Both the position numbers and the translations under genes were made by a program. 64,000 nucleotides of DNA from Chrysomallon squamiferum (taxonomy: Eukaryota; Animalia; Mollusca), in the NCBI GenBank assembly GCA_012295275.1, contig CM022672.1:31062001-31126000 (forward strand), written 5' to 3'. A model generated the notes under the pieces. It saw only the letters and a program-made list of their open reading frames with translations. It did not search any database and was not told where the DNA came from. How positions within the stretch are numbered: the first letter of the stretch is position 1; every line of letters starts with the position of its first letter. Of the stretch, positions 5,001 to 52,112 are shown piece after piece.

Positions 5001-7493
5001 CATCACACAGCACAATCGTGAGCTGTCACAACAATGGTAACCTTGGATACTCGAGATCGTTCGTGTAAACAGATATCAGAAATACGAGACGAGTCCAGGC
5101 ACTAAGACAGAAGATGAGATACATTTTAGAGTAACTTTCCCCTCTGCCATCTTGATTATGTCCCTTTGAACCTGAAAACGAAGAAGAAGGTAGTGAAAGT
5201 TATCAAATTTTATTGTGCACCAGTAGACACCAAGAAGAACATAAATGTGTCAGAGATACGCTTGTAAATCTGTGCTAAATGATTGTGTTGTGTTGTAGAA
5301 GTAATATCAGCAGTAAGCATTTCAAAGAGATCATTCTTTTCAAACAGCAGTATGACATTTGTTTGTTGAGATTTGTGTAAACAAAAACAAAAATGTTTGT
5401 AAAAAAAATCCGTTACACAATCCGGTTTGTTTCTTAGTTGCGTGTGACGATGTTTGGTGTTTTTAAGTACACGTGGCTGCCGATGTTGCACATATTTTAT
5501 ACAGAACTGTGACAACTGTTCAGTGCCATCCTGTTTAAACATGGAGGACAAGAAGTGTCAGAGATTTAAATCCAGTTAAAATACATTTACAGTGAAAGTG
5601 TTTCAGATGTTTGATGTGTGTAATAAAAAATGTTGCTTCAGAATGTTTAAAAGTCTCCTGGTTTGGTTATAATTTTAATTTTACAAACTGGTTTTGATGT
5701 CATTGATGCATGAATAGTGGTGTTTATATTTTAATAAATCTGTTTTTATTTTTATTTTTTGTCATTTTAATATGTAAATGATATTATTCTGAGTATATAA
5801 TGTTTATGTTTTAATAAATCCTATGGTTTTATTCCTAAAGATTAATGAGGAATATTTCAATATTAAAAACTGATTTTAGTCCAGTTATTTTTTGATAAAT
5901 GCATTTATATTTTAATGTAAAAACTCTATTCTGAAAATAAATAAACACATTTTATATTTTAATGTAAAAAATCTATTCTGAAAGATTCACAAATAAAGAC
6001 ATTTGTATTTTAATGTAAGAAATCTTTATTATTAATGACTTGTTAACAAAATACATTTGTAATTTAATAATAAAAACATCATTTTGAAAAATTCACAAAT
6101 AAAGACATTCATATTTTAATGTAAAAAAAATCTTTATTAATGACTTGTTTAACAAAATACATTTATAATTTAATATAAAAACTCTATTCTGAAAATAAAT
6201 AAACACATTTATATTTTAATACAAAAATGTTATTTTGAAAAATTCGTTAATTAAAAACTATTTAAATTTAAAAAAAAAAAATTTAAATTTAATTTCAGAG
6301 CTCTGGGTGGCAATCCTCTGTACTGCGACTGCAACCTGAAGTGGCTGTCAGACTACATCAAAGCTGACTACATCGAGCCAGGCATCGCATCGTGCGTGGG
6401 ACCCCCCAAGATGAAAAACAAACTTCTGCTGACCACACCCTCACAGGACTTCGAGTGTCTGGGTCAGTCGACTTCTTCGGTTTCAGTTCAGCGACTCACA
6501 GCAGTATTGTGTGTCACCATTGCACCCTAATTAGAGCTAACTTCTTATCAGATTTCTTACTAAACACGTAATTAATACTGAACAAGTAATTAATACCAAA
6601 AATAATTAATACTAAAAAAGTAATTAAAATAATTACTAAACAAGTAATTAATACTAAACAAGTAATTAATACTAACAGTAATTAGTAAATAAGTAATTAA
6701 TACTAAATAAGTAATTAATACTAAAAGTAATTAGTAAATAAGTAATTAATACTAAATAAGTAAATAATAATAAACAAGTAATTAATACTAAATAAGTAAG
6801 GAATACTAAATAAATAAATAATAATAAACAAGTAAATAATACTAAATAAATAAATAATACTAAATAAGTAATTAATACTAAATAAGTAACTAATTAATGA
6901 GTATTATACATCTTTTTGATGTCCATATAACAATTAAAGCGTTAATTTTAAAATGACTTAAATATGCTTTCACTACTTTATTAACAATTTTGTATTTCAA
7001 TACAGCAGATTTCATATCTTTAATTCCTAATAATAATTTAATATTAATTTAAAATGACTAAATCCAGTTTTACTAAATAAGTACCAAAATTAAAACTGAT
7101 AGAATACTGACTATCTTTTTGAAATCCTGACAATAACTGACATTAACTTAAAATGCCAGAAACATATTTTTACTGCAACAGCATCACAATAAAGATGACA
7201 TACATCTTCTTTTTTTTTTTGAGATTGTAGTTATTAATCTTAAATTCAGTGAATCAGGGTTTTTTAACAGGATTAATAACAGATTAAAGGTGATTAAGTG
7301 CATGCATACCTTTTCAAATTTCTGATTAGCAGAACTTTTAAAACAGTAAATCAGTTGGTAATTTTTTTAAATGATTTACAAATTACTGATGAGAAAGGTT
7401 TAGCAATAAGTTGACCACTGTTTTGTTGTGTGACAGACACACCCTGGTTTAGTCAGAGATGTGCATCACAACAACTTGCTCTGATTAACATGT

Positions 7494-7584
<91 letters not shown>

Positions 7585-9160
7585 TCACTCATTCACTCAC
7601 TCACTCATTAACTCACTCATTCACTCACGCTCTCTCTCACTCACTAACTCACTCTCACTGACTCTCTCTAACTCACTCACTCACTTGCTCACTGACTCAC
7701 TGACTGACTGACTGACTGACTAACTCACTGACTCACTCTCTCACTCACTCATTCTCACTCTCTCTCTCACTCACTCACTGACTCACTCACTGACTCACTG
7801 ACTCACTGTTCTGTTACTCAATTCAGGAGACCCGGATCCTTTCATTGCTGAGAAGTGCAACGTTTGTCTGAAGAATCCGTGCAAGAACGGGGGCCAGTGT
7901 CATCTGGTCGACTTCAAGAACTTCACCTGTGAGTGCTCGCCCGGTTTCCACGGAAACAGGTGCGAGAGCAAAATCGACGCCTGCTTCGGAAATCCTTGCA
8001 ACAACGGGGGTCGGTGCGAAATTGTCGAGTTCGGCAGATTCAGGTGAATTTTTCATTTACTTAATTAAACTGGTTCTCAGTTGTTGTTTTATTATCCTGT
8101 TTATCCTACTAAGTCCTATTTATGATCAATATTGACAAAATATTGTGAGAAAAAAGTAAATTTAATGAATATTCATAAAGCTGATTATAACTTCTAGTAA
8201 TAATAATAAATATATATATATATATATTTTTTAAATCTTTCTTTTTAATAAGTAATTTTATTTTATTACTTCTAGTAATAATAAATATATATATATTTTT
8301 TAATCTTTCTCTTTTATAAATAATTTTATTTTATTACTTCTAGTAATAAATATATATATATTTTTTAAATCTGTCTTTTTAGTAAGTAATTTTATTTTAT
8401 TACTTCTAGTAATATATTATATATATATATATATATATACAGTTTTTTTTTATTTTTTTTTTTTTTTTTTAACTAATAATTTTGTTTTATTAGTAACCAG
8501 CTTATTTAAAACCAAGCCTGAGAGTTGATGTTTAAACTTGTGTCTGTGGTTTAAGAATAAAACAAAATAAATTTTAATGAGTAAACAATTTGTTGGTTTA
8601 AAAACCATGAATAGGTATAAAATTTAACTTTCACAATCACTTTGAAATCATTGTAAAGCAGCAGGATATTTAACATTCATGATTTTTGTTTTTGTATTTT
8701 TTTACCTTTTTATATTCAAATGAAAAATATCAAAATATCTTTTTATTTATATAGAAGATGGTATAAAAAAAACCTCATTCATTTATATTTTATATAAAAG
8801 AAAATCAAAAACACATTTATTCTTATTTATACAGAATATAAAAAACCCATTAATTTTTTTTTATATAGATAATCAAAAACACATTTTTATTTATACAGAA
8901 GAACTTCAAAACCCACCTGATTGTTATTCATCTGTTTTGTTGTTTGTGTTGTAGATGTAAATGTCTGGACGGGTTTGAGGGGGAGAGGTGTGAAACTAAC
9001 ATTGACGACTGCGTCACACACAACTGCGTCAACAACGCGACGTGCGTTGATGAAATTGAGTCTTATTCGTGTCACTGCGCCTCAGGCTACATGGGTTTGT
9101 TTTTGTTTTTGTTTGTTTCTTCATAATTTTACATTGTTAAAATACTCAGTGTTGGGAATT

Positions 9161-9191
<31 letters not shown>

Positions 9192-9834
9192 AAAATACTT
9201 TGTGTTGGGTTTGTATTTGTTGGTGTTTTTTTTTTTTTGTTTTTCTTCATAATTTTTATTGGGTTTGTATTTATTTGTTTATTTTTTAAGAATAGTTTAT
9301 TAACATTCTTACTTTTGGATTTATATTTTATTTCTTGTATTAGTTTTCATACATAGCAGTTAACATATCATTACACATGTATATTTTGGTGTTTTTTTCA
9401 TAGTTTTTTTTATTTATTATTAATACAATTACTTTGACGTTTGTATTTTATTGTTATATTTGTTTTTCTGCATTAGTTTTTAATTTTATTAAAATATTTA
9501 CGTTTGTTGTTTTATTTTTTCTAGATAAAGGGGAATAACTGTTTTAAATGTAGTAAGGGGAATAACTGTTTTAAATGTAGTATCACAGTAAGTAATTCCA
9601 GTATGTATTAATCAGATTCGCTGGCTTGTTTCAGGTAAATGGTGTGAAATGATGATTCCATTCTGTAAAGCTGGGTACAACTACTGCCTTAATGGTGCCA
9701 CTTGCGTTTCCATGACAACAGATTACAGGTAAACAAAATTAACATGCTCTTTTAGAAGAAACAGAAATTTATTCATTAAGACAAACTCTTTGATTATTAA
9801 AAAAGTTTTGTTTGTATCAGTTAAATATCAGCAG

Positions 9835-9904
<70 letters not shown>

Positions 9905-10038
9905 GTTTTGTTTAGATTAGAGCTGTTTATTTTTTAAATATTTTATATGAGATGAAAATATATATATTTTTTTAAAAATTTAATATTTGTTAATGCTTTT
10001 TTTCATTTATTATTTTAAAATTTTATTTTATTATTATG

Positions 10039-10069
<31 letters not shown>

Positions 10070-10175
10070 CTATTATTATTATTATTACTACTACTATTAT
10101 TATTACTATTATTATTACTATTACTATTATTATTATTACTGCTATTATTATTATTACTATTACTACTATTACCAC

Positions 10176-10226
<51 letters not shown>

Positions 10227-13200
10227 TTTTTATTCTTGTTTTTGATGAACCAACTACAGAAAAAACGAACTATTCTTTTCTAAAACATCATCATTAATTA
10301 ATATTGATATATGTATTTATTTTTTAAAAACTTCTAAAACATCATTAATTTTGACAGATATAGATATATATGTAGATATATTTGCTGTTTGTTTGTTGTC
10401 AGGTGTGAGTGTGCTGTAGGCTTCGAGGGGAAGAACTGCTCAGTGAACACGGATGACTGTAAGTTGGGGCTGTGTCAGAACTCTGCTACGTGTGTCGATG
10501 GTCTTGCTTCGTACTCTTGCATGTGCAGCCGCGGCTACACCGGCCGCCACTGCGAGATCGCCCCAGTGCTGTCCATGCACTACGCAGGCTTTGCCACTGG
10601 CGCCTGCAACTACCACAACTGCCAGAACAACGGCGTCTGCTACACGCGGCCTGGTCAAAGCACTGACTATCTGTGTAAATGTGCTCCAGGTATTAATGCT
10701 TCCTTGTGCTGCTTTGTGTACTTAGACTCATCTCTTAACACCTGTCTGTCTGTCTGTGTGTCTGTGTGTGTCTGTGTGTCTGTGTGTGTCTGTGTGTGTG
10801 TGTCTGTGTGTTTGTCTATCTATGTGTCAGTTATTAGCCGTGATGGAACTCTAAAATATTAAAATACATGTAAATGTATATATATATATATACTTTTCAC
10901 CCATATTTTAATATATATATATAGTTTTTAATTAAATAATGTGGGGGGGTTTAAAAATTGGAAAAAAAATTTTTATTAAATATTATCAGGAGAAGAAGAA
11001 GACATTAATTTTGATAATTTCATTTAAAAGTTCAAGGTGAAAGATAATTTCATTTAAATATCAACAGTGGAGATTAAAGCAGTTTAATTTGGTTGTAAGA
11101 CACTAAAATAATAATTTGAAATAAAGTTTCTATTAAAATCAACAGAGGGAATTAAAATTTTTTGTAGATGAAGATAAAATACCACATTTTTGTATTAAAT
11201 AGTTTTAATAATTATTGGTAGTGGACACTAAAACAAAATTTATGGGTGAAGATGGAAAACAATTTTTTAAAAATAATATGTAGTTTCTAGCAGAAATTAA
11301 AATAAAAAGTTTTGAAAATTGAGATGAAAGATGAAAATGCAGATTTTTAAATGTTATTTCAACAAAATGGAATTAAAATAATTGAAAATTTGAAAGGAAA
11401 TATTCTGTGAACGAAAAACAGTTTTCTTAAAAAATATTTTTGAAGATAAGATGTCAGTTTAAAAACAAATATTTATTTACTGATATATTTTATTAAAACA
11501 TAAATATGGGTGGTAAAAATCTTAAATTTGTTTTACAGAATCTCCATCATATTTTAATAATCATTTTCTTTTTTGTGAGATTTAAATAACATCCAACACA
11601 AATCTAGTTTACTCTTAATATTTCACTTTCATATTTTATTGTGGTATTTAAAAAAATCTTCTCTTTAATGTGTATGTTTTATTATTTCTTAAAATATGTT
11701 TTGAAAGGGACAGTATTTAGTTCAAAATTGTTTTACAATTTGTCATTCATTTTGTTTTGATCAGTGTGTCTACTGGTATCATTGATTTTGTTTTTAGATT
11801 AGCAGTGAGGTTTAGTTCACTAGATTTTCTTACTTGTTTGTGAAGATGTGATTTTATTTTCTATTTTTCAAAATCACTTAAAGTGAAAAATGACACAAAA
11901 GTATCTAGTTTTAGTGATATTTCACTTCACAGAAACAATTTAAACCTTCTAAAGATTCTTTTTATTTTGATGAATAAACTCAAAGGTTGGTATGGATTTT
12001 TTTTTTTTTTTAAACTTTTTCATTTTATTTCTTTTGTTTCGAGAATCTTACTTGTTGCTAGCTTTTCTTTTGTTAGACTTTTATTTGTTTTAATCAGAGC
12101 TTCTTGCTGTTAATAATAAATGCAAATGATGACATAACAAGGCACCATTTCAATAACATTTAACATCTTTTTTAAAATGTTTTTTTAATTCTGTGGTGGC
12201 AAATTCTTGTTAGACTAAAAATAGAAGAAGCTGTGTAAAACAAACACCATATTTAAATTACTGTGCACACTGCTTGTATTAATTAAATTAATTAATTAAT
12301 TAAGAATGTCTGGTATTGACAATATGTGTTACAGAAGAATTAGGTGCAACGTGGCAGATCTGCATGAACCACAGAATGACAACAGTTAATGAGAATGAAA
12401 AACAAAAAATTTATTTGCTATTTGTTTAATTTTGCTTCATGCTTCATTTTCATTTAAGTTTTAAAACTTAAAAATATTTGTTCTGTTTATAATGAATTTT
12501 TTAATATTTTATTTCATTAATTTTTTTTTTTTGTCTTATAGTATTATAGTGTGTTACATGGATATGATGAAAATATAAATATTTAAAACTTTAAAATTTA
12601 ATATTCACATATATAATGTGATGATTCCTTCTGCATGGTTTATTCAGTGTTCTAGATTTGCTAAAAAGAAACATTTCTTTTTTATTTACAAATGTTATTG
12701 GAAGAAAGCAAAACAGACAAAAGTAATTTTAATTAAAAAAATATGTATTTATGAATGATGATGAAATAAATAAATAAAATTGGGAAAAAAAAAAAAAAAT
12801 AGAAAAGTAATTAGCAAGTGTGTTTATGAACAATCACAAAAATAATAACCGTAAATTAAATAAATAAAAAGGAGAAAAGAAAGACTAAAAAAAAGTTCAA
12901 GTGATTAATTTAAAAGTTATTAATGTCTTTTTGTTTTTCTTTCAACTGAATACCGTGGTGTCAACAGAATAATGGAAATTTTATCCAAAATGCACAAAAA
13001 AAAAAAAAAAAAAAAAAAAAAAGAGTGAAAAATATTTTATCAAAATATATTTGAATCTAAACTATGAAAAGGAGAACGTTGAAAAATACTAGTTTTTGAA
13101 TATAATTAAAAATAATTATTACAAAGAAAGTTTCTGTTTAAACAGCTCTGTTGATTTATGATTCAGTTTATTGTGTTGATGATTCAGAGAACATAGTATT

Positions 13201-14987
13201 TTGAAATTCAAACATTTCATTGAATATTATGTAGAATTCAAATTAATTTATTTTAAAAGAAAAAGAAATAAGACAAAATACAAACAAAAAGGAACATGGA
13301 TGTAAAAAAACATTTAATTATTTTTTTAAATAAAACTGTTATTTAACCATAATTTCATAATGTTTTTTTTTTTTTTTTTAAACTTTTATTTCCATAAATT
13401 ATTATTTTCAACCAAAATTATTTTAATTTTTTTTCTAAAACCGTTATTTTATTTCCATAAATTATTCGAAAATTTTAATCTTTTTCCTTTTATTTAATCT
13501 CAACCAACCATAAAATTATCAAAAAACAGAGAAGAAACCTGACACTTTTCCGCACTCGTTGTTCTCTTCCAGGTTTCGAAGGCAAGAAATGTGAGAAGCT
13601 GACTAGCGTGTCGCTCAAAGAGAAGGACTCGTACATCCAGCTGAAGCCTCTTGACTTCAGACACCCCGTCAACATCACCATCGTCTTCACCACCGACAGC
13701 AGCCGCGGCATCATCCTCTACTCGGGCACCAACCAGCACGTCGCCGTGGAGGTGTTCCGCGGCCGCGTGCGCGTCAGCTACGACATCGGCAACTACCCGG
13801 GATCAACGATGTTCAGCTACGAGAGGATTGACGACAGCCAGCAGCACTCGCTGGAGATGATCGTCAAGCACAAGACGTTCATGATGACCCTGGACAAGCG
13901 AGGGACGCCGAGGACGGTGGTCAACGAGGGCACCAATGACTACCTCAACATCAGGGAGGACCTGTTCCTGGGAGGGATTCCCCCTGAGGTGAACACGCGA
14001 GCGTTCAAGAAGTGGCACATCCGCGATGGGACCAGTTTTAAAGGTACGCTGGTCGTGGATACGACTCCCGGGTTGTATCATGTGTTGTATCACGTGTTGT
14101 ATCATGTGTGTTTTAGTTATGTCAGATGTCGTATGTATTCAGTATAGCATATATCATGTTATGTCACACACGTTTATGTATGTATGTATATTACAATTAT
14201 TACATTACACACTCATACACACAAACACACACACATATATATCATAAATAACATATCATATATCATGTCATATAACACGTTTTATATATAACAATTATTA
14301 CATTAGGCACACATTATATGTCATATCATATAATAATGTATATTATAATTATATCAGATATATATATTTATATGTCAAACATGTTTATATAGAAAATACA
14401 ATTATTACATTATATATACACACACACACACACACACATACACACATATATAATTCTATTATATTAATTTATTATTACATTTTATATTCTATTAAATTAT
14501 ACTTGATATTTTTCAATTTTTTTTTAATAATGATTAAAGCTTATAAATTCAAGCATGTCTGTGTTGGACAAAAAAACCCAGCTAACTAAATTATACTTTT
14601 TTTAATTCGTTATTAAAATACTGTTAAATTTTCAACTTAACTCATATCAGCACTATTGTTATACTAAACAAAAAAAGAAAAAAGAACTGCCAGCAGAAAT
14701 ACTAATAATTTGACATTTTGTTTCAGTTGTAAGTTTATTTTTTGGCTGTTTTGAATTATGAATTTTATCTAGTTTGTGTGTAATGATGGTGTCCAGAAAA
14801 AATTTAATTGTCTCTGAAAAATGAATCAGGCATTTTGTTTAGCTTCTTGGATGCTGTCTTAAACTATTTTTAATTTAAATTTTGTGAAGCCTTGTTGATT
14901 AATTAATAAGTAATAACAAGAATTATAACAATTGTAACTCTCACATATATATACGTAGATAGATATACACACACACTCACACATACA

Positions 14988-15026
<39 letters not shown>

Positions 15027-15610
15027 ACATACTCTTTTAATGTGTCAAGTTTCTGTTTTTAACACCAGGCTGTATAAGTGAAGTTTGTCTTAACGGGAAG
15101 CAGCAAGATCTACTTTTATAAACACACACACACACTATTACAAATGTCTGATGGTTCTGTTTTTAACACAGGATGTATAAGTGAAGTTTACCTCAACGGA
15201 AAGCAGCAGGATCTACTCTCTGCAGTTGCCACTCATAAAATCACACCTGGCTGTGTGTTAAACCCATGTCAAAAACCTGTGTCAGATATCTTAATTGCAA
15301 AGACTGAAAAACAAATTTATAGGGTCCAGATGCAAATGCAATAAGAGGCTAATTAGTGGAGAAATTCAGGATGTCTGTGATAAAGGTAATAAAAATCTTA
15401 CAGATAATTTAATTGTAGAGATTGTGAATGTTTATATGTTGTCCCAGTTTAATTAATAATGAGGAAATTAGTGGGGAAATTAAGTATGTCTGTTATGTAT
15501 ATATGTATGTATGAATGTATGTATGAATGATAGTATTATAGTATGAATGTATGTGTATATCTGTGGGTATGTACATATGTGTGTGTGTGTGTGTGGGTGG
15601 GTGTGGGTGT

Positions 15611-15643
<33 letters not shown>

Positions 15644-15682
15644 TCTGTGTGTGTGTGTGTGTGTGTGTGTTTGTGTGTGTTT

Positions 15683-15778
<96 letters not shown>

Positions 15779-15821
15779 AGTGTGTGTATGTGTGTGTGTG
15801 TGTCAGTGTGTGTGTGTGTCA

Positions 15822-15852
<31 letters not shown>

Positions 15853-16042
15853 GTTACTAATATGGAATCAGTCCAGCTTCCAGGTATGGAAATCTTTCAG
15901 AAATGGACAGGTTTGCTTTTTAAATTAAAGTATGTTGTTATTATTATCATTATGATTATTATTATTATAATTGTTATCATTATTATAATTATTATTATCA
16001 ATATTATTATTGTTATTGTTATTATTATCATCAGTATTATTA

Positions 16043-16076
<34 letters not shown>

Positions 16077-16561
16077 GCTACATATATGAAACAGTATTAA
16101 TCCGTTTATAATAATTGTAATCATATTATTTTTAGAGCATTAAAAACTATGAGAGTTGCATGCTAAGAAGAAAACACAAAGAAGACACATTCAGTATCTT
16201 TTCCTTTTGTTCAAATGCACAGATCACAATTTTAATTTATAATTTTTTTTTTTTTTGATTTTGTTGCTCTTGTTTCTTATCCTCAGATTGCACACATTAA
16301 ACTTAAGAATGTTTACAATTTTGTTTCACAGCTCCAAGTTGTCGCACGATTGTTTTCCGGGACATCTACATCGACCCGAAAACGAAGTGCAAATCCCGAG
16401 CGAAGATCAAATACCGGCGCTGTGACGGGACATGCGGCAATCGCTTCTGTTGTAAACCAAAGAAAATCAAGACTCGCAAAGTGAGACTGTTCTGTCCAAA
16501 CGGACACACCTACATCTACGAGCTGCCAGTGATCAGGAGGTGCGACTGCAACAAGTGTTAA
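1833..16561 (+). CDS. slit: Slit axon-guidance ligand, 3' part (spliced; 12 exons in window, 5' exons lie upstream)
   Basis: Manually spliced GT-AG exons with consistent phases give LRR4 ([35 protein letters not shown]), six EGF repeats, LamG, one EGF and a cystine knot. This is the protostome Slit architecture. Confidence 0.97.
2151..2222 (+). CDS. slit: Slit LRR exon ([24 protein letters not shown])
   Basis: ttccag/gtaagt, 72 nt single-LRR exon. Confidence 0.95.
2930..3001 (+). CDS. slit: Slit LRR exon ([24 protein letters not shown])
   Basis: tttcag/gtgagt, 72 nt. Confidence 0.95.
3510..3581 (+). CDS. slit: Slit LRR exon ([24 protein letters not shown])
   Basis: ttgcag/gtaagt, 72 nt, SLHGND motif typical of Slit D4. 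Confidence 0.95.
4065..4220 (+). mobile_element. Dispersed repeat copy A (about 150 bp ending in a (TG)n tail)
   Basis: Near-identical reverse complement of 22870-23070 (ttatcagtgatag..tgcttgttac..gatgtaactttgttacattagttttcagtaactgtagtaag..acactgtgcatatag..tttgcatatgta). Confidence 0.7.
4205..4515. repeat. Compound (TG)n with interspersed tttgggaggg / tttggagagag motifs
   Basis: Directly visible. Confidence 0.9.
6299..6462 (+). CDS. slit: Slit LRR-CT exon ([54 protein letters not shown])
   Basis: tttcag/gtcagt, 164 nt, diagnostic Slit LRRCT. Confidence 0.96.
6565..6900. repeat. About 18-bp AT-rich minisatellite (aagtaattaatactaaat)
   Basis: Directly visible tandem copies. Confidence 0.85.
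7497..7806. repeat. (TC)n followed by (TCAC)n/(TGAC)n microsatellite
   Basis: Directly visible; ends about 20 nt before the EGF1 acceptor. Confidence 0.95.
7827..8043 (+). CDS. slit: Slit EGF1-EGF2 exon
   Basis: [54 protein letters not shown]; ttcag/gtgaat. Confidence 0.95.
8955..9094 (+). CDS. slit: Slit EGF2-EGF3 exon
   Basis: [46 protein letters not shown]; tgtag/gtttgt. Confidence 0.95.
9635..9728 (+). CDS. slit: Slit EGF4 exon
   Basis: [30 protein letters not shown]; tttcag/gtaaac, phases fit neighbours. Confidence 0.93.
10030..10225. repeat. (TAT/TAC)n microsatellite
   Basis: Directly visible. Confidence 0.95.
10403..10689 (+). CDS. slit: Slit EGF4-EGF6 exon (includes the EGF5/6 linker)
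   Basis: [54 protein letters not shown]; gtcag/gtatta. Confidence 0.95.
13573..14043 (+). CDS. slit: Slit laminin-G (ALPS) domain exon
   Basis: [61 protein letters not shown]; ttccag/gtacgc, 471 nt. Confidence 0.96.
15172..15385 (+). CDS. slit: Slit LamG-end / EGF7 exon, frameshifted as given
   Basis: [26 protein letters not shown], then the frame breaks (stop 15342-15344). EGF fragments RCKC and CDK appear in other frames before the gtaata donor. 214 nt is not a multiple of 3. Confidence 0.75.
15575..16075. repeat. (GT)n then (ATT)n microsatellites
   Basis: Directly visible. Confidence 0.95.
16332..16561 (+). CDS. slit: Slit terminal exon, C-terminal cystine knot
   Basis: [75 protein letters not shown]; cacag acceptor. 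Confidence 0.95.
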
Positions 16562-19500
16562 TGACGATTTTCACCTAAAACGTGTTTTTTCTTTAACCAT
16601 TACGGAAGTTAAGATTCTTAACACTAAACAAAAAAATTTAAAAAAAAAAAAAAAAAAAGAGAGAGAGAAGTTATTGCTATTATTATTATTACATGTTTTG
16701 CCATGACCTGAAATTAATTGTTAGTGCCAAGACGCTAATAATATTTTCACAAATTTATATACGTTTTTTTTTTGTTTTTTTTAATAATGTGGTCATCTGA
16801 CATATTGTTTGGATTTGCTGAATCCATTTAAATTAAACCAAAGAAAGGTTGTGAAGGAACTGCAACTACTGTGAAGAAAAAAGTGTTCATGACAAAAATA
16901 AAATAAAAAAAGGAAAAAAAAATAAAGATAATGAAAGAAATGCAAAAAAAAATGTTTAACAGTCAGACAAGTTTGTGACAAAGGAAAATAAGAAGGAAAG
17001 CAATAACGAAGGACTTTTTTTTAACAGAAAATAGTACATGACAAAGATAAATTATGATGGATGATACTGAAAGAACTGCAACAGCAGGTTGTTAGTAATG
17101 TAACAGTTTGTGATGAAGACAACAAAATGGACGACAGTAAAGATAAATAAATAAAAAATTTCAAACAATGATGGAGCAGGATTATTTTAATCTCTGCTTT
17201 GTGTTCACATTTGCAACTCTAGTGTACATATCGGAGCTGAAGACTTGGGCAGGTGTGTGTATCAAACGTGTTTTCTTCTCGCTGTTGTTTCTCATTTCAC
17301 CCCAGCCTGTTGTTTTGTGTTTTCTCTCAGTGTTCTGTGAAATGTGATACAAGAGAAAATCTGTTTCTTCACAGTTCCTCGACTTTTGTTTACTGAGAGC
17401 CTTTCAATTTACAGTTCAGATTGTTGCTTCTTTTTTTTTGTTCTATTACAGGAATTTCAGAACAAGAACATTGTTCTTCGGAATTCCCTAACTTTATTGT
17501 CAAGAACTCTTCAGTTTACAGTTCAAAGAGTTGGTTCGTTTGTTTTTCTGTTGAAGGAATTTGAGAACAAGAACATTGTTCTTTGCAGTTCTTATAACTT
17601 TTTTATCGAGAACCGTTCGGTTTACAGTTCAAAGAGTTGCTTTGTTGTTTTCTGTTAAAGGAAATTGAGAACAAGAACTACATGTGAACAGTTCTTTGTT
17701 ACTGAAAGCCTCTGAATTTGCAGTTCAGATTTGTTGCTTCATTTTATTTTAAAGGAATTTCTCTTCTTGCAGAAGAGAACTGAGGATGCAGAAAAAGAAA
17801 AAAGAGAGAGAAATAATCGACATTGTTTTTTAACATTTCATATCTTCTGCCAATGTGAGAACAGTGTTGTTTTATAACATTTTGATTTGTTCAAGAATTT
17901 GCTGGTTGTTTTTTATTTTTTATTTATACACCTCAGTTTTTGTTCTCTGCTGATTTCAGTTTTTAATCTTTAAATACTTTTTGAGACGTTATTTATATGA
18001 GAAATATATCGTAGTAATTTTATTGCACAGTTTTAACAAAAGTTTAAAATTAAATTTAAAAAAAATAATTATTAGGACTTTAATTTAAATATGCCCCATC
18101 AGAATTTCAATCTTTTTGGAATATTTTGAAATAAAAACAAAAAACAAAATCATCATTTAACTGAAGGTTATTTTTTTATTTTTTATGTAATTATTGAAAA
18201 CAAATTTTAATTCTGACTTTTTTTAAACATATACATTAAAAATTTTAAATTGTGTTATTTTACATAAATCACATAATTAAAATGCACTGAAATGCAATAC
18301 ACTGAAGTTTTTTTCTTCAGAAAATATCACAAGTCTGTAAGTAAAATATTTAAAATACTAAAATTAATATTCTTTTAGAAAATAACCAAATAAAATATTC
18401 GAACTGAATATATTTTACTTAAAAATAGCAACGTTCTCATATTATCCATAATGCCAGAGTTACGGTTCTTGTTCAGATTTACATTATTCAGCATAAACAA
18501 CAAAAGAAGGTAAAATTAAATTTCTTTGGGCTGCCTTGATTCAAGTTAGTTTTGTTAATACTGGATGAGTTTGTACATAAGAAAACACTTTCCTTTAATA
18601 AACGAATAAATTAATACACAAATGTTTATAGTTTCTTAAACCTTATTTCTTTATATATTAGTTACAAGGTAAGTTATAACTCTTGTTTTTTATATATATA
18701 TTATTTTTTTCTCCCTGTACAGCTCCAAATTCTGTGTAATATAGTCACGAAGAAAATATATTTAAATATATTCCTTAATACCTGTTGTGAATGTTTTCAT
18801 TTTTTAAATGTTTTTATTTTGCTGTAACAGTTTTTAAAATGGCAATCTTAAGAAAATATATCTGAATATATTTTAGAAATATTTATGAAAGCATACTCTG
18901 TTTTTCAACATCCACATCAGAAATAAAATATAACGATACTAATACTTGAATCATGATCTTAATGTTCATAAATAACAAGATTTCTTTCGTTTTTCTTTTT
19001 AATTTTCCTTCAACAGTAATCATTGAAATATTTATTGAAAATATATTTAAATATTTAAAAATATTTATGAAATTGTACTCAAAGATACTCACTATCTTGT
19101 CAAAAATAAAATAACAATAACAACTGAATCATAATGTTTTAATACCTTATATAAATGTTTAATTTAAATTTTACTTATCCACTAAATAAAGAAATGTAAA
19201 ACTGAATCATGATATTTAATGCTGTTTTATAAATATATTTTAAAAAATAATGTTATTTTGTTTCAAGTTTTTAAAATGGGCAATCTTTAAGATATGTAAA
19301 TATGCACGAGAAAACCCTTTGTAAAATAACACACATAATTCACAGATACAGTGAAATGCAAGAACATCAAATGACTGTATTCATCAATTTACAGCACATT
19401 TCAATCACCACTAGCTGTTAATATTCGTTTTGTTATAAATCAAGGGAGGTAACTAGAAAGATAAGACGTTCCTTTTTTTTTTTTTTTTTTTATTATTATT

Positions 19501-45636: not shown

Positions 45637-46551
45637 GTATGTATATATGTATATATGTATATATGTATGTATGTATGTATATTTGTATAGACAGACAGAG
45701 ATAAAAAAAATATAATTTAGAAGCCCCTTTCGTAAGAATGTTTTCTAAATTACAGTTTAGATAAAAATATATCTTTGACGTTCCCCAATTAAGAAGGGCT
45801 AACTGGCTATGAATCCATTCTCCAAAATATCTGAACCCCCAAGAAATCTTATTCATAATTCATAAAGTTTATACAGACCCTCTCTGACTCTTTTTTCTTC
45901 TTGACTCCTGTGAAGGCCTCTATGGCGTTCATGTGGTAGAGCTGTCTCACAAGAGAAAGGGCACAAGACTTTGAAGCTGACTGTTTGTTGGATCCATGTT
46001 CTCGAGCATGGATAGCTGAAACAGATTTGTAAAATAAGTAAAAACACCCCAATATAAAACAGAGAATGACAATTTATTGTTTAGGTTAAAGATAATATGT
46101 ACCAAATGAAAACAAATTTGTAAAATTTGTAAAATAATTAAAAAAGAGAATGACAATTTATCGTTTTAGGTTGATAATAAAAATGAAAACAAAGTAAAAT
46201 GATGATATAGAATCATTTAGGTTAAAGATAATTCAATTTTTGTAATTATTATATGTACCAAATGAATTCAAATTTGTAAAATAATTAAAAAGACGCTGAT
46301 AAAACAAAGAAAGAATAATTAATGATAAAATTTTGTAATTTAGGGTAAACGAAAACAAATTTGTAAAATAATTAAAATGATGCTGATAAAACTAAGAATA
46401 ATTATGATGAAATGATTTAGGGTAAAGACAATTCAATTTATGGAAAAATTAAAAAAATAAAATTGTTATAGAGGAAAGACCAGTATAAAATATCAATACA
46501 GAATCATAGTTTTATATGTATAAAACTAACTAACTAACTAACTAACTAACC

Positions 46552-46620
<69 letters not shown>

Positions 46621-49600
46621 AAAATATTCAAGGTGAAAATTAGAAAATATAAGTAATAATCGCAAATCTTTTTCAGAATAAAAGAGTAAAACTATTTTAA
46701 CTTACTTTGACCAACTTTCCTTACAAAGAATTTCATCTCAGCAATGAAACTTCTGTAATAGAAAAAAAAAAATAATTATAATAATAACAAAAATTGTATT
46801 TGAAATGTTAATTCGCAAAAAAACAAAAATACAGGTAGATTTAAATTATATTCTTAATTTGTTTTTCGATGCATAAATGTTAGCATTTTCTATTTACTTT
46901 CACTCTTTATTTTTAAAAAAAAAATCATTTAACAAACCAATACATATAAAGAAATTTAATATAATAATTAAATATAATTTAATATAATAATTAAAATTTA
47001 TTAAAATACATTTTTGAAAAGCAATTTTTATTATAAAATGAATCACATTAGACACTGAGAAATAAAACAAAGATGAAATTTAATTATCATGTTATAAATC
47101 ATTTTAATGCTTTGTCAGTTTATTAAAAACTTCGAGTAAAATATAAATTTTAAAAAATGCTAGTATTCATTCAATGAAAACAAATTTTAGAAACGGAAGA
47201 GTATTCTCATAAATGACAAAAATGATGACAGTGTTATATCAAGGACACAAGCATAAGAATTTAAAATTGATGGAACTGTTTTTTTCTGAAATTAAGCAAT
47301 AACGTTGCATCCATTTCAAAACACCCAAGTCCTACATCTTCTGTGATGAAGCAACAACTGAAAAACACATTAGAAATCTCCTTATGTTTAAACAAGTATA
47401 ATTCCAAAAATAACAGGTTTCATTTCAAGTGTATTTGTAAAAAAAATTTGATATAGATGATTCATTCTAAGTGATTTACTAATTATCATCGAACCTTCTG
47501 GTCTCTGAAACTGAAACGTTTAACATTATTTGTTTCTGAAATGTAAATAAACGTGAACGTAAGTTACTTACCGCTTGTTTCCAAGGTGATGCTGAACCTT
47601 GACCCCTCCCTCAGACGAAGACAGCAGCAGAGACCAAACAATCTCCAAGAATTATAAGAAACAGACCAGCCATCAATTTCAAACCATTACCAGGTCAGTG
47701 ACCCCACTCACGAGGCAATGTATAGTACGTCTGTACTGCATTTTCATAATCACTTAACAGTAACATTTACAACATTTATTTCCTAACAAATACCTTAAAA
47801 ACACCTGACATGTTTAATCCTTTTCTGCACATTCATTAAATAAAAAAATTCTATTAACACATTTCAAGACCGTAGCAATACTGCTATTTTTTTTTTAAAT
47901 TAAAATTCTAGGGATTAAATAAAAAAAAAAAAAAAAATTATTCAGTCTATTACTATCAGTATTACCGACATTTTAAGAAAAATAATGTTATAATCATACA
48001 AAAATAATAAACTGTTTGTTGTATTTCACAATTTTAGGCTGGTCTGTTTCCCCATACTTTTTTTTCTATTTTGGGGTGACAAGCTGAAACTTTATCAGCA
48101 AATCACCACAACAATGACTGGAGATTGTTTGTTCATTAAGTACGTCTATTTTAAAATAATAATTAAAAAAAAGGGCCTTAATAAATATTAAAACTTTAAA
48201 AATATTAAATATTAAAAGGTGGCCCTTGTATTATTAAAAACAAACTAGGCTTCATTAAAAAGCCTTAGAACATGTTTGTAGGTACCTATTGAAGTCTGGG
48301 CCTACTACAGAATATTTGTAATCTGCCTGAATTTTGTTGATCTGTAAAAACTGGTGCAGTCTACTTTTGGCATTTTCTAATGTCCAGTTGCCATGAATTT
48401 CTGCATTCATATCAACATCTTCTGACTGAAAAAAATAAAAAACAACTTTTACAATTTAAAACAGATCAGGACATGCAAACGAATTTAAAACAAACGAAGG
48501 AGTTTTCAAATTAAAGTTTTGCCTAATCAAAGCACAAATGGATAATTTGTTTTTGTCAACTTTCATATATGACAAACAGAATTATTTATTTTCAGTGTCA
48601 CAGAAAAAATTAACAAAAGAATTTAGAATTTAGAACAGAATGTTAACAATCTCAGTACATTGAAGGATTTTCATCAAGTTTTTTGTAAGCACAAATTAAT
48701 GTAAAAATGTGAATGTGAATGTAAAAATATTTTTAACACTTTTACATTTTACACTGAAATACCACATTAAAAATATTTGCTTTTTAGAACTTATGGATTT
48801 ATTTCTAAATATTTGAATCAAGAACCAAGAATATTTGCATTCAAACAAAATAAGTTATATACTTCCACTTTCACATTTACAAATGAAATACCTAATTACA
48901 AAAGCACATTTAAAATGTTTACTTTTTTTTTTCACATATTTCAGTACAGAAATATTTGAAATTAGAAAACAAAATGAAATATTTTTATTCTAACACAATG
49001 AGTTATTCACTCAATCCACGTTCACATTTACAAGTGTGTAAAACTGAAATATCTGATCACAAAACCAATCTAAAAACATTCACTTTTTACAAAAATATCT
49101 GAATCTTAAATCAAAAAGAAATATTCATAACCAAACACAGTAAACTATTTACTTCTTCCACTTTTTTTCTGTTGATCATATCAAGGTACTCCTGTGGGGG
49201 GCCTTTCTGGTATGCTGGGTATGTGCGAGGGGGGCCTCCCAAAGATATTGCTAAAAATAAAACATAGTTTCCACCATTATTAGGTAATGTTTTGTATTTC
49301 TACTGCATTTCATATCATTTTTATCCCACACAGCATTTATTCTAACAAATTTTTAACACTTCTAAATTAATCTTTTAATTAATTTCAACTGTAATCACTT
49401 CACCAGGTAATTTTTAGTATTTCTATTGCATTTTTCTATCATTTTAACAGGTAAAATTTATCCCTAACAAATTATTAACACTTGTAAAATAATCTTTTAA
49501 TAAAATAAAAATGAACATTGATTTCAACCATAATCACTTTAATAGGTACAGTTTTCTACGGCATTTTCATATCACATTCTCTAATACAACACTTATTTCT

Positions 49601-51466: not shown

Positions 51467-52112
51467 GACTGTCTATTTTCTGTTTTAAAAAAAAATAACA
51501 TAAACCTAAGAGTCTGATAAAAAAAAAAAAAAAAAAAAAAAAAAGTAACTGCTTTCTACACCTTAACAATTTTAATATATTATTAATTATAATTATATTA
51601 ATAATTGTTAAAAGTAAATCATGATATATATTTTTAAGATTTATAATTCATAGTTCTTATATAATACTATATCAGACAAATTTTGATCATATTTATTATT
51701 ATTTTAAATGTTTTAACATAACAAATTTAATTATTTTTGATAAAAACTGAAAGTGAAACTTCACCAGATTTGATAAATTTTTTTAATAATTTATGATTTT
51801 CTATTACTAGTACATATATAGTGTTTGCCAGCCATAAACACAAGCCTTAATCTACACTGTGGGGTAATTTTAAATATGAAACAATTAATAAATACGATTG
51901 TGACTATAACTGAAACAAAATCTTTTGACTATTCTTCAATGTTATTGTCTGTTCAGACTGTGTCATTTCTGCATATTGAGGCTTGTCCTTCGCCTGAACT
52001 GAACTGATCGGGATAAAATAATGCAGTTTTGATGAAGATGGCATATAAAACACCAAAATGATAAAAATATTTATTTATTTATTTGTTTTAAATTAAAATA
52101 ATTTAAAAATAC

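Follow-up and report, generated by a model that had tools for sequence, protein, structure and literature searches.

The 64,000-nt stretch of the Chrysomallon squamiferum genome analysed here (hereafter the window, 64 kb) encodes DHX9 on the minus strand, from about position 51500 to 23100. The encoded protein has the DHX9 layout, a pair of N-terminal dsRBDs ahead of a DExH helicase core. The exon at 48425–48286 shares 85–87% identity with named mollusc DHX9 proteins and, in a whole-gene comparison with 29 test proteins, Haliotis DHX9 was the top match (74% over 1110 residues, with 25 segments aligned), the next-closest matches being other gastropods and bivalves; a separate search with a C-terminal exon gave no match. 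These comparisons confirm both the orthology and the name given to the gene in an earlier note on this DNA, which was made from the sequence alone. On the plus strand, at about 6300–16600 of the window, there are exons with leucine-rich-repeat C-cap, EGF, laminin-G and cystine-knot features. This order of domains is consistent with a Slit gene, converging on DHX9.

The second dsRBD of DHX9 is split by an intron in which an additional exon is found, parts of which are complementary to the upstream intron (Table 1). The earlier note had described a GC-richer island in this intron, and the GC content of the exon is indeed 0.47 versus 0.22 in the rest of the intron. All the sequences quoted in that note were found on the minus strand where it had placed them.

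Table 1. Features of the host intron of DHX9 and its flanking exons, in the order of transcription; positions are those of the window
Positions	Strand	Feature	Evidence
48286..48425	-	DHX9 coding exon, first half of dsRBD2; ends GPDFN-R; phase-2 donor AG/GTACCT	RNA joints in four of four runs
46753..48285	-	Host intron of 1533 nt, at the position of human DHX9 intron 6	Joint 48286→46752 in four of four RNA runs
48132..48293	-	Branched fold (predicted) in which the constitutive donor is paired (48293–48282 with 48143–48132); contains the hairpin 48227–48221/48177–48171	Pair probabilities 0.88–0.98
48171..48227	-	Hairpin 48227–48221/48177–48171	Pair probability 0.97
48118..48131	-	P1 5′ arm, intronic	Perfect complement of 47635–47647
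48075..48107	-	Side hairpin, makes a three-way junction between P1 and P2	Pair probability 0.99
48037..48051	-	P2 5′ arm, intronic	Perfect complement of 47658–47671
47736..47760	-	Weak acceptor ATGCAG/TACAG, 37% pyrimidine, within the P2 loop; AG predicted paired in a 5-bp local hairpin	X4 junction contig and fold
47572..47735	-	Poison exon of 164 nt, 3′ end placed at the putative donor; TGA at 47710–47708	X4 joint, depth and variant count
47657..47671	-	P2 3′ arm, within the poison exon	Sequence and fold prediction
47635..47648	-	P1 3′ arm, within the poison exon	Sequence and fold prediction
47566..47574	-	Consensus donor GCG/GTAAGT closing the poison exon, use presumed	Sequence
46706..46752	-	Coding exon of 47 nt (SFIAEM...)	RNA joints

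Splicing of the intronic exon

Five sequencing runs contain this stretch, all of them as assembled contigs: four RNA runs of one study (X1–X4) and one run of unspecified kind (X5), in which the element itself has no coverage. The RNA runs were selected because they contain the stretch, so its coverage in them is by choice, and the contig listing filters out some records. The constitutive joint 48286→46752 was present in the four RNA runs. A GT..AG joint from the same donor to 47735, which splices the acceptor of the intronic exon to the upstream coding exon, was present in one of the four (X4), as a single 58-nt contig linking 48315–48286 to 47735–47708. In this run, the depth of the junction contig was 5.7 versus 27.6 for the constitutive contig, and the contig over 47737–47602 reached a depth of 13.7, versus 5.0 and 2.6 in the contigs that flank it.

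The joint by which the exon would be left, 47572→46752, was absent from all four RNA runs; in X4, the constitutive contig crosses 46752 without a break. In both X2 and X4, a contig start falls at 47601, the donor position plus 29, which is the same offset as that of proven forks; an insertion allele at 47602/47601 fits these starts equally and would be an alternative cause of the breaks in X4. Because this allele explains the X4 breaks as well as a fork does, and because the listing filters records, the use of the donor at 47572 is a step that we infer. Of the two junctions that the earlier note proposed to search for, the entry from 48286 into the island was then recovered (at 47735, in one of four runs) and the exit from 47572 was not. 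Among the acceptors that it predicted, only 47735 was spliced, while 47782, 47730 and 47642 did not occur in the RNA contigs.

Unspliced contigs span both the acceptor and the donor in X1, X2 and X3. The host intron is covered in the four RNA runs; the two introns upstream of it are bridged and have hardly any coverage. The exon contig stops at the donor 48286 in X3, just as it does in X4, which implies a second exit at this donor that is unlisted.

The peptide of the intronic exon reads STDVLYIAS*. Its TGA occupies exon nucleotides 26–28, 136 nt ahead of the donor and with about 20 further junctions downstream, a position further than 50 nt ahead of a later junction. The consequence does not depend on the acceptor chosen: each of the candidate acceptors had been expected to add a stop or a frameshift, and all 27 AG candidates give a premature stop when joined to the donor at 47572. 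A second donor-like site, CTC/GTGAGT (47712–47706, minus strand), would form with the acceptor at 47735 an in-frame microexon of 24 nt, and its use was unseen in the RNA contigs. Unless this donor is used, entry at 47735 leads to a stop whatever follows. We regard it as very probable that the exon is unproductive. In C. squamiferum, it would be left through the donor at 47572 and its transcript would be degraded by nonsense-mediated decay (NMD).

Predicted fold and sequence constraint

The earlier note described two nested perfect helices between the exon and the upstream intron, a hairpin between their upstream arms, and a further hairpin nearer the constitutive donor. The fold prediction reproduced both helices, which are slightly longer than first described (14 bp for P1 and 15 bp for P2), and both hairpins. 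Mean pair probabilities were 0.96 for P1 and 0.95 for P2; they were kept at 0.96–0.97 when the entire intron was folded and at 0.95–0.97 across folding temperatures of 10–37 °C. The segment 47550–48290 presented a folding energy of −186.6 kcal/mol (z −4.0), which was equalled by none of 20 shuffles. The constitutive donor is also predicted to be paired (48288–48282 with 48143–48137, probability 0.97). This donor is itself weak (AG/GTACCT), and its predicted helix (p 0.88–0.97) stacks beside P1.

In dinucleotide shuffles of the intron, one perfect helix of at least 13 bp with at least five G/C appeared in six of 2000 sequences and two such helices in none of 2000. Such a helix was found in ten of 125 sliding windows, of which two overlap the element, seven are driven by microsatellites, and one contains the sole other non-repeat helix, a 14-mer at about 57–58 kb. 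Comparison of the 26 DHX9 introns longer than 450 nt (first 1200 nt of each, with approximate exon limits) showed that the host intron has the strongest long-range duplex, −30.9 kcal/mol with z −4.0, the next being −24.0, and that it is the only one to combine a significant duplex with a consensus donor after it. The long-range helices are real in the sequence, and the fold in vivo is a prediction.

Across the four RNA runs, no variant was found in the 164 nt of the poison exon versus 20 variant sites in 454 covered flanking nucleotides (Fisher p 0.003), variants being counted as contig differences from the window, with differences near contig ends unlisted. The covered parts of the 5′ arms, including the P1 5′ arm, presented no variant in two RNA runs; the conservation of the window's own arms is in this way known within the species only. 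A check for A-to-I editing revealed four minus-strand A>G differences (47454, 47564, 47779 and 50041), all outside the helices, in contigs, which drop rare variants. No further copy of the arms was found within the 64-kb window. The possibility of an intronic snoRNA or another known element, raised in the earlier note, found no support in the Rfam search, in which 46000–49500 gave three chance-level matches, none within the element, and the arms matched no family. The intron contains, in summary, a real, constrained and unproductive exon within a predicted RNA cage, and its description as a structure-caged poison exon is well supported.

The same intron in other animals

A metagenome scan provided 63 loci, of which 54 were parsed, many of them redundant, and 52 of these 54 have an intron at the same phase-2 position. 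In one group of invertebrate loci, here called clade W, this intron carries a parallel module. Clade W is grouped with a support of 94 in a tree of 264 columns, which did not place the clade itself. Two blocks, one 5′ and close to the donor, the other 3′ and about 0.6–2.9 kb downstream, both unrelated in sequence to the window, form nested helices with each other, which carry side hairpins. In P1 and P2 of 16 clade W loci, 358 of 384 cells are paired, 11 of the 26 misses being one conserved C-A, and two-sided changes occur in 5 of the 24 pairs. In an alignment of 10 loci, 94% of the cells are paired versus 34–45% with slid partners; two-sided changes affect 7 of 54 pairs versus a shuffle mean of 2.8, and 6 of 1000 shuffles reach this number (custom script). 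Relatedness among the loci is not accounted for in these controls, and the structure itself comes from the very sequences tested, so the covariation is real but modest. Identity is 0.91 in the helices versus 0.59 at third positions of the exons. The conservation and covariation that the earlier note suggested looking for were detected in the clade W module, and not as similarity of the window intron to related introns, for which BLASTN gave no significant match.

The clade W module also includes an acceptor-like motif, TGCAG/TA, whose CAG is paired at the end of P2, and an invariant donor, CAG/GTGCGT, about 40 nt after P1. Both splice motifs are present in 17 of 21 loci tested, where they enclose an exon of 65–93 nt that is predicted to be spliced; the four misses are a truncated contig, a divergent donor, a locus without the 3′ block and a locus outside the clade. 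Fifteen of the 17 exons have an in-frame stop and two a frameshift, and a stop occurs in all six whose length is divisible by three. The window and clade W are alike in their intronic 5′ arms with a side hairpin, in having the 3′ arms in the poison exon, and in the donor just outside; they differ in the acceptor, which lies 64 nt inside the loop in the window and at the helix end in clade W. Both acceptors read TGCAG/TA (47736–47741 in the window) and lack a normal pyrimidine tract, with a GU-rich run in clade W. The constitutive donors of clade W are non-consensus too, mostly GTTTGA.

Beyond clade W, five loci (L032, L046, L047, L048 and L052) have a significant duplex, while 6 of 22 related introns, those of L001 (bivalve-like), L013, L037, L042, L044 and L045, have none in their first 1200 nt. 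The single-locus duplexes are only suggestive, because control regions reach similar values (six of the first 26 have z −4 or lower). Nested long-range helices were observed in the same intron of L048 and L052, of L032, of L046 and L054, and of L047, which are candidates for further poison exons, and a consensus donor follows them in L052 and L032. A third lineage (L037, L042, L043 and L044, first 550 nt) has blocks of conserved sequence close to the donor and a conserved downstream TGG/GTAAGT in three of its four loci; the only long-range pairing predicted there is a short helix. The 10-mer AAGGGCCACC is shared by the window (48227–48218) and L037/L043, where it lies about 57 nt past the donor, nearly the same distance as in the window, and is a hairpin arm in both; this match was found post hoc between introns otherwise unrelated, and L042 and L044 differ there.

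In human DHX9, this position corresponds to the known exon 6A. The published forward primer for this exon reads, as translated by eye, G-P-D-H-N-R-W, and the next primer R-R-M-R-L-S (PMC7072589). Protein P0092 has GPDHNR followed by WRRMRLT and stops after 34 residues. The primers and this protein together indicate that exon 6A begins at the same phase-2 position, after GPDHN-R, as the earlier note had suggested. Both exons share the gene, the intron, a premature stop and the condition of being normally skipped (PMC4741636, PMC7072589). Exon 6A is sensitive to UPF1, has been shown to trigger NMD and rises with slow Pol II (PMC4741636), and it is repressed by hnRNPM and SRSF3 (PMC7072589). The two exons differ in that the WRRMRL tail of P0092 has no evident likeness to STDVLYIAS*, and vertebrate tail peptides in general are unlike this peptide by eye, in a comparison of peptides only. 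The available text of both papers describes no intron-exon duplex (PMC4741636, PMC7072589), and that of the second does not contain the word 'autoregul' (PMC7072589).

Among 93 short DHX9 proteins, eight have after GPDxxR a residue that fits neither the normal exon nor read-through into the intron; they may serve as leads, and some may be gene-model errors. The stickleback isoform P0106 and the fish-like P0103 enter a frameshifted next exon, and the oyster-like spliced protein P0002 stops after 27 residues. Another 33 of the 93 end compatibly with read-through into this intron, many of which may derive from DNA contigs. The truncated vertebrate-type tails P0087, P0091, P0092, P0103 and P0106 share SLAEK and QKNIQ in different frames, pointing to a single exon maintained from fish to mammals.

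A human splicing table for siDHX9 (knockdown about 65%) has seven rows labelled 'NPL // DHX9', at hg19 chr1:182.761–182.800 Mb, which we take to be NPL. Given this placement, exon 6A is unlisted in that table. A literature search that covered few subscription journals found no account of a poison exon in an invertebrate DHX9, of a structure around exon 6A or of autoregulation of DHX9.

Proposed feedback switch and rival readings

We propose that the locus may work as a feedback switch. P1 and P2 would tie the body of the exon to upstream intron sequence, by which the poison exon would be mostly skipped; the DHX9 protein would unwind these helices, allowing the exon to be included; inclusion would truncate the protein in dsRBD2 and lead to NMD; and this decay would cap DHX9's own level, closing a negative loop. 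We assign a probability of about 0.45 to this reading, of a caged poison exon opened by DHX9 that caps its own level. Its parts differ in strength: the structure is likely to be functional, and the place of DHX9 as the main sensor is nearly an even question, leaning to doubt. We infer the repressive direction and the role of DHX9 as the opener. Repression by the structure is the most economical assumption, since the body of the exon is base-paired, its weak acceptor is enclosed, and the acceptor of clade W is buried, its paired CAG arguing for repression. As background, DHX9 acts mostly in favour of exon inclusion, 79% of DHX9-sensitive cassette exons being skipped upon knockdown (PMC11826090), and the fly mle-napts allele is described as unable to open a structure in which splice sites are hidden (PMC4710571).

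Three known systems resemble parts of this switch. The DEAD motif of plants (DRH1/RH14, RH46) also occurs in RNA-helicase genes, as a conserved helix covering an alternative acceptor that leads to NMD, and its authors propose unwinding by the helicase as negative feedback; the plant system differs in its DEAD-box rather than DExH host, in having a local hairpin in place of the long-range three-way junction, in its alternative acceptor rather than a cassette exon, and in NMD, which was shown in plants and is presumed here (PMC12218528). In BRD2 exon 3b and BRD3 exon 5b, long-range complementary regions (PCCR) govern the inclusion of poison exons, and these structures arose independently in the related genes; however, the arms of BRD2 lie in the flanking introns and not inside the exon, the hosts are not helicases, and the structures were tested by mutagenesis (PMC10789245). 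In Drosophila mle-napts/para, unwinding of a pre-mRNA duplex by the DHX9 orthologue has been proposed to make splice sites accessible, but the duplex, an ADAR substrate, belongs to another gene and there is no feedback loop (PMC4710571).

The main rival accepts the caged poison exon and attributes its input not to DHX9 but to Pol II speed, general splicing factors or other dsRNA-binding proteins. The speed of Pol II would determine whether recognition of the acceptor precedes transcription of the 3′ arms, and the other factors would set inclusion. Such kinetic control fits the same anatomy, in which the acceptor is transcribed 64 nt ahead of the P2 3′ arm, and it agrees with the responses of human exon 6A to slow Pol II (PMC4741636) and to hnRNPM and SRSF3 (PMC7072589), with structure-controlled poison exons in the non-helicase BRD2/BRD3 genes (PMC10789245), and with the missing exon 6A in the siDHX9 table. 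However, it offers no explanation for the repeated presence of long duplexes in this intron of a dsRNA helicase gene, in lineages whose sequences are unrelated, and it can coexist with control by DHX9; we consider it a possible but doubtful replacement for the DHX9 switch. A less probable reading, unlikely in our judgement, is that the structure mainly detains the intron or favours an unproductive form, for example because the constitutive donor is concealed or because the dsRBDs of DHX9 bring the protein to it, with a retained or partly spliced nuclear RNA as the product. Here the unspliced contigs crossing both sites in X1, X2 and X3, the intron coverage in all four runs (which are selected runs), the unseen exit junction in the four RNA runs, the predicted pairing of the constitutive donor and the 33 of 93 short proteins that fit read-through (many possibly from DNA contigs) would find their place. 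The consensus donor in the window, the invariant downstream donor in 17 clade W loci and the frameshifted cassette products in the fish proteins P0103 and P0106 point instead to an exon that is left by splicing, and NMD itself would deplete the fully spliced form.

Variant depletion, the lack of a second copy in 64 kb, the uniqueness of the duplex among the 26 introns, the human exon at the same position and the conserved module of clade W all speak against a cryptic splice site in a decayed inverted-repeat insertion, with helices and junction as noise. This explanation, which draws on the single junction contig, on a copy search limited to the 64-kb window and on control regions that sometimes contain strong inverted repeats, is judged very unlikely. 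Slighter still is the chance that the useful product is the in-frame 24-nt microexon 47735–47712, which would insert eight residues into dsRBD2 and alter RNA binding. The GTGAGT donor at 47711 does preserve the frame with the acceptor at 47735, but in X4 no fork appears at 47712, where the junction contig and the one after it simply continue, the 47712 site is predicted to be paired, and all the clade W exons stop or shift the frame.

A broader form of the proposed DHX9 switch, which we hold tentatively and with less confidence than the switch itself, is that intron 6 of DHX9 may be an ancient activity sensor, in which a pre-mRNA duplex serving as substrate of the helicase itself gates a poison exon. 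The logic would have been kept for hundreds of millions of years while the sequence was replaced completely, and human exon 6A would be the vertebrate form of this switch. If the switch works as proposed, the level of DHX9 would be set by its own unwinding activity rather than by the binding of a protein to a short motif, and the switch would act as a homeostat for the nuclear dsRNA load, since more competing substrate would mean less self-unwinding and more DHX9. DHX9 is a drug target in humans (PMC11831107); its inhibitors should then lower the inclusion of human exon 6A and work partly against themselves, and DHX9 should go down with oligonucleotides that open the fold and up with those that lock it. 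The intron would also represent a rare alternative-splicing event kept at one position across phyla without sequence homology.
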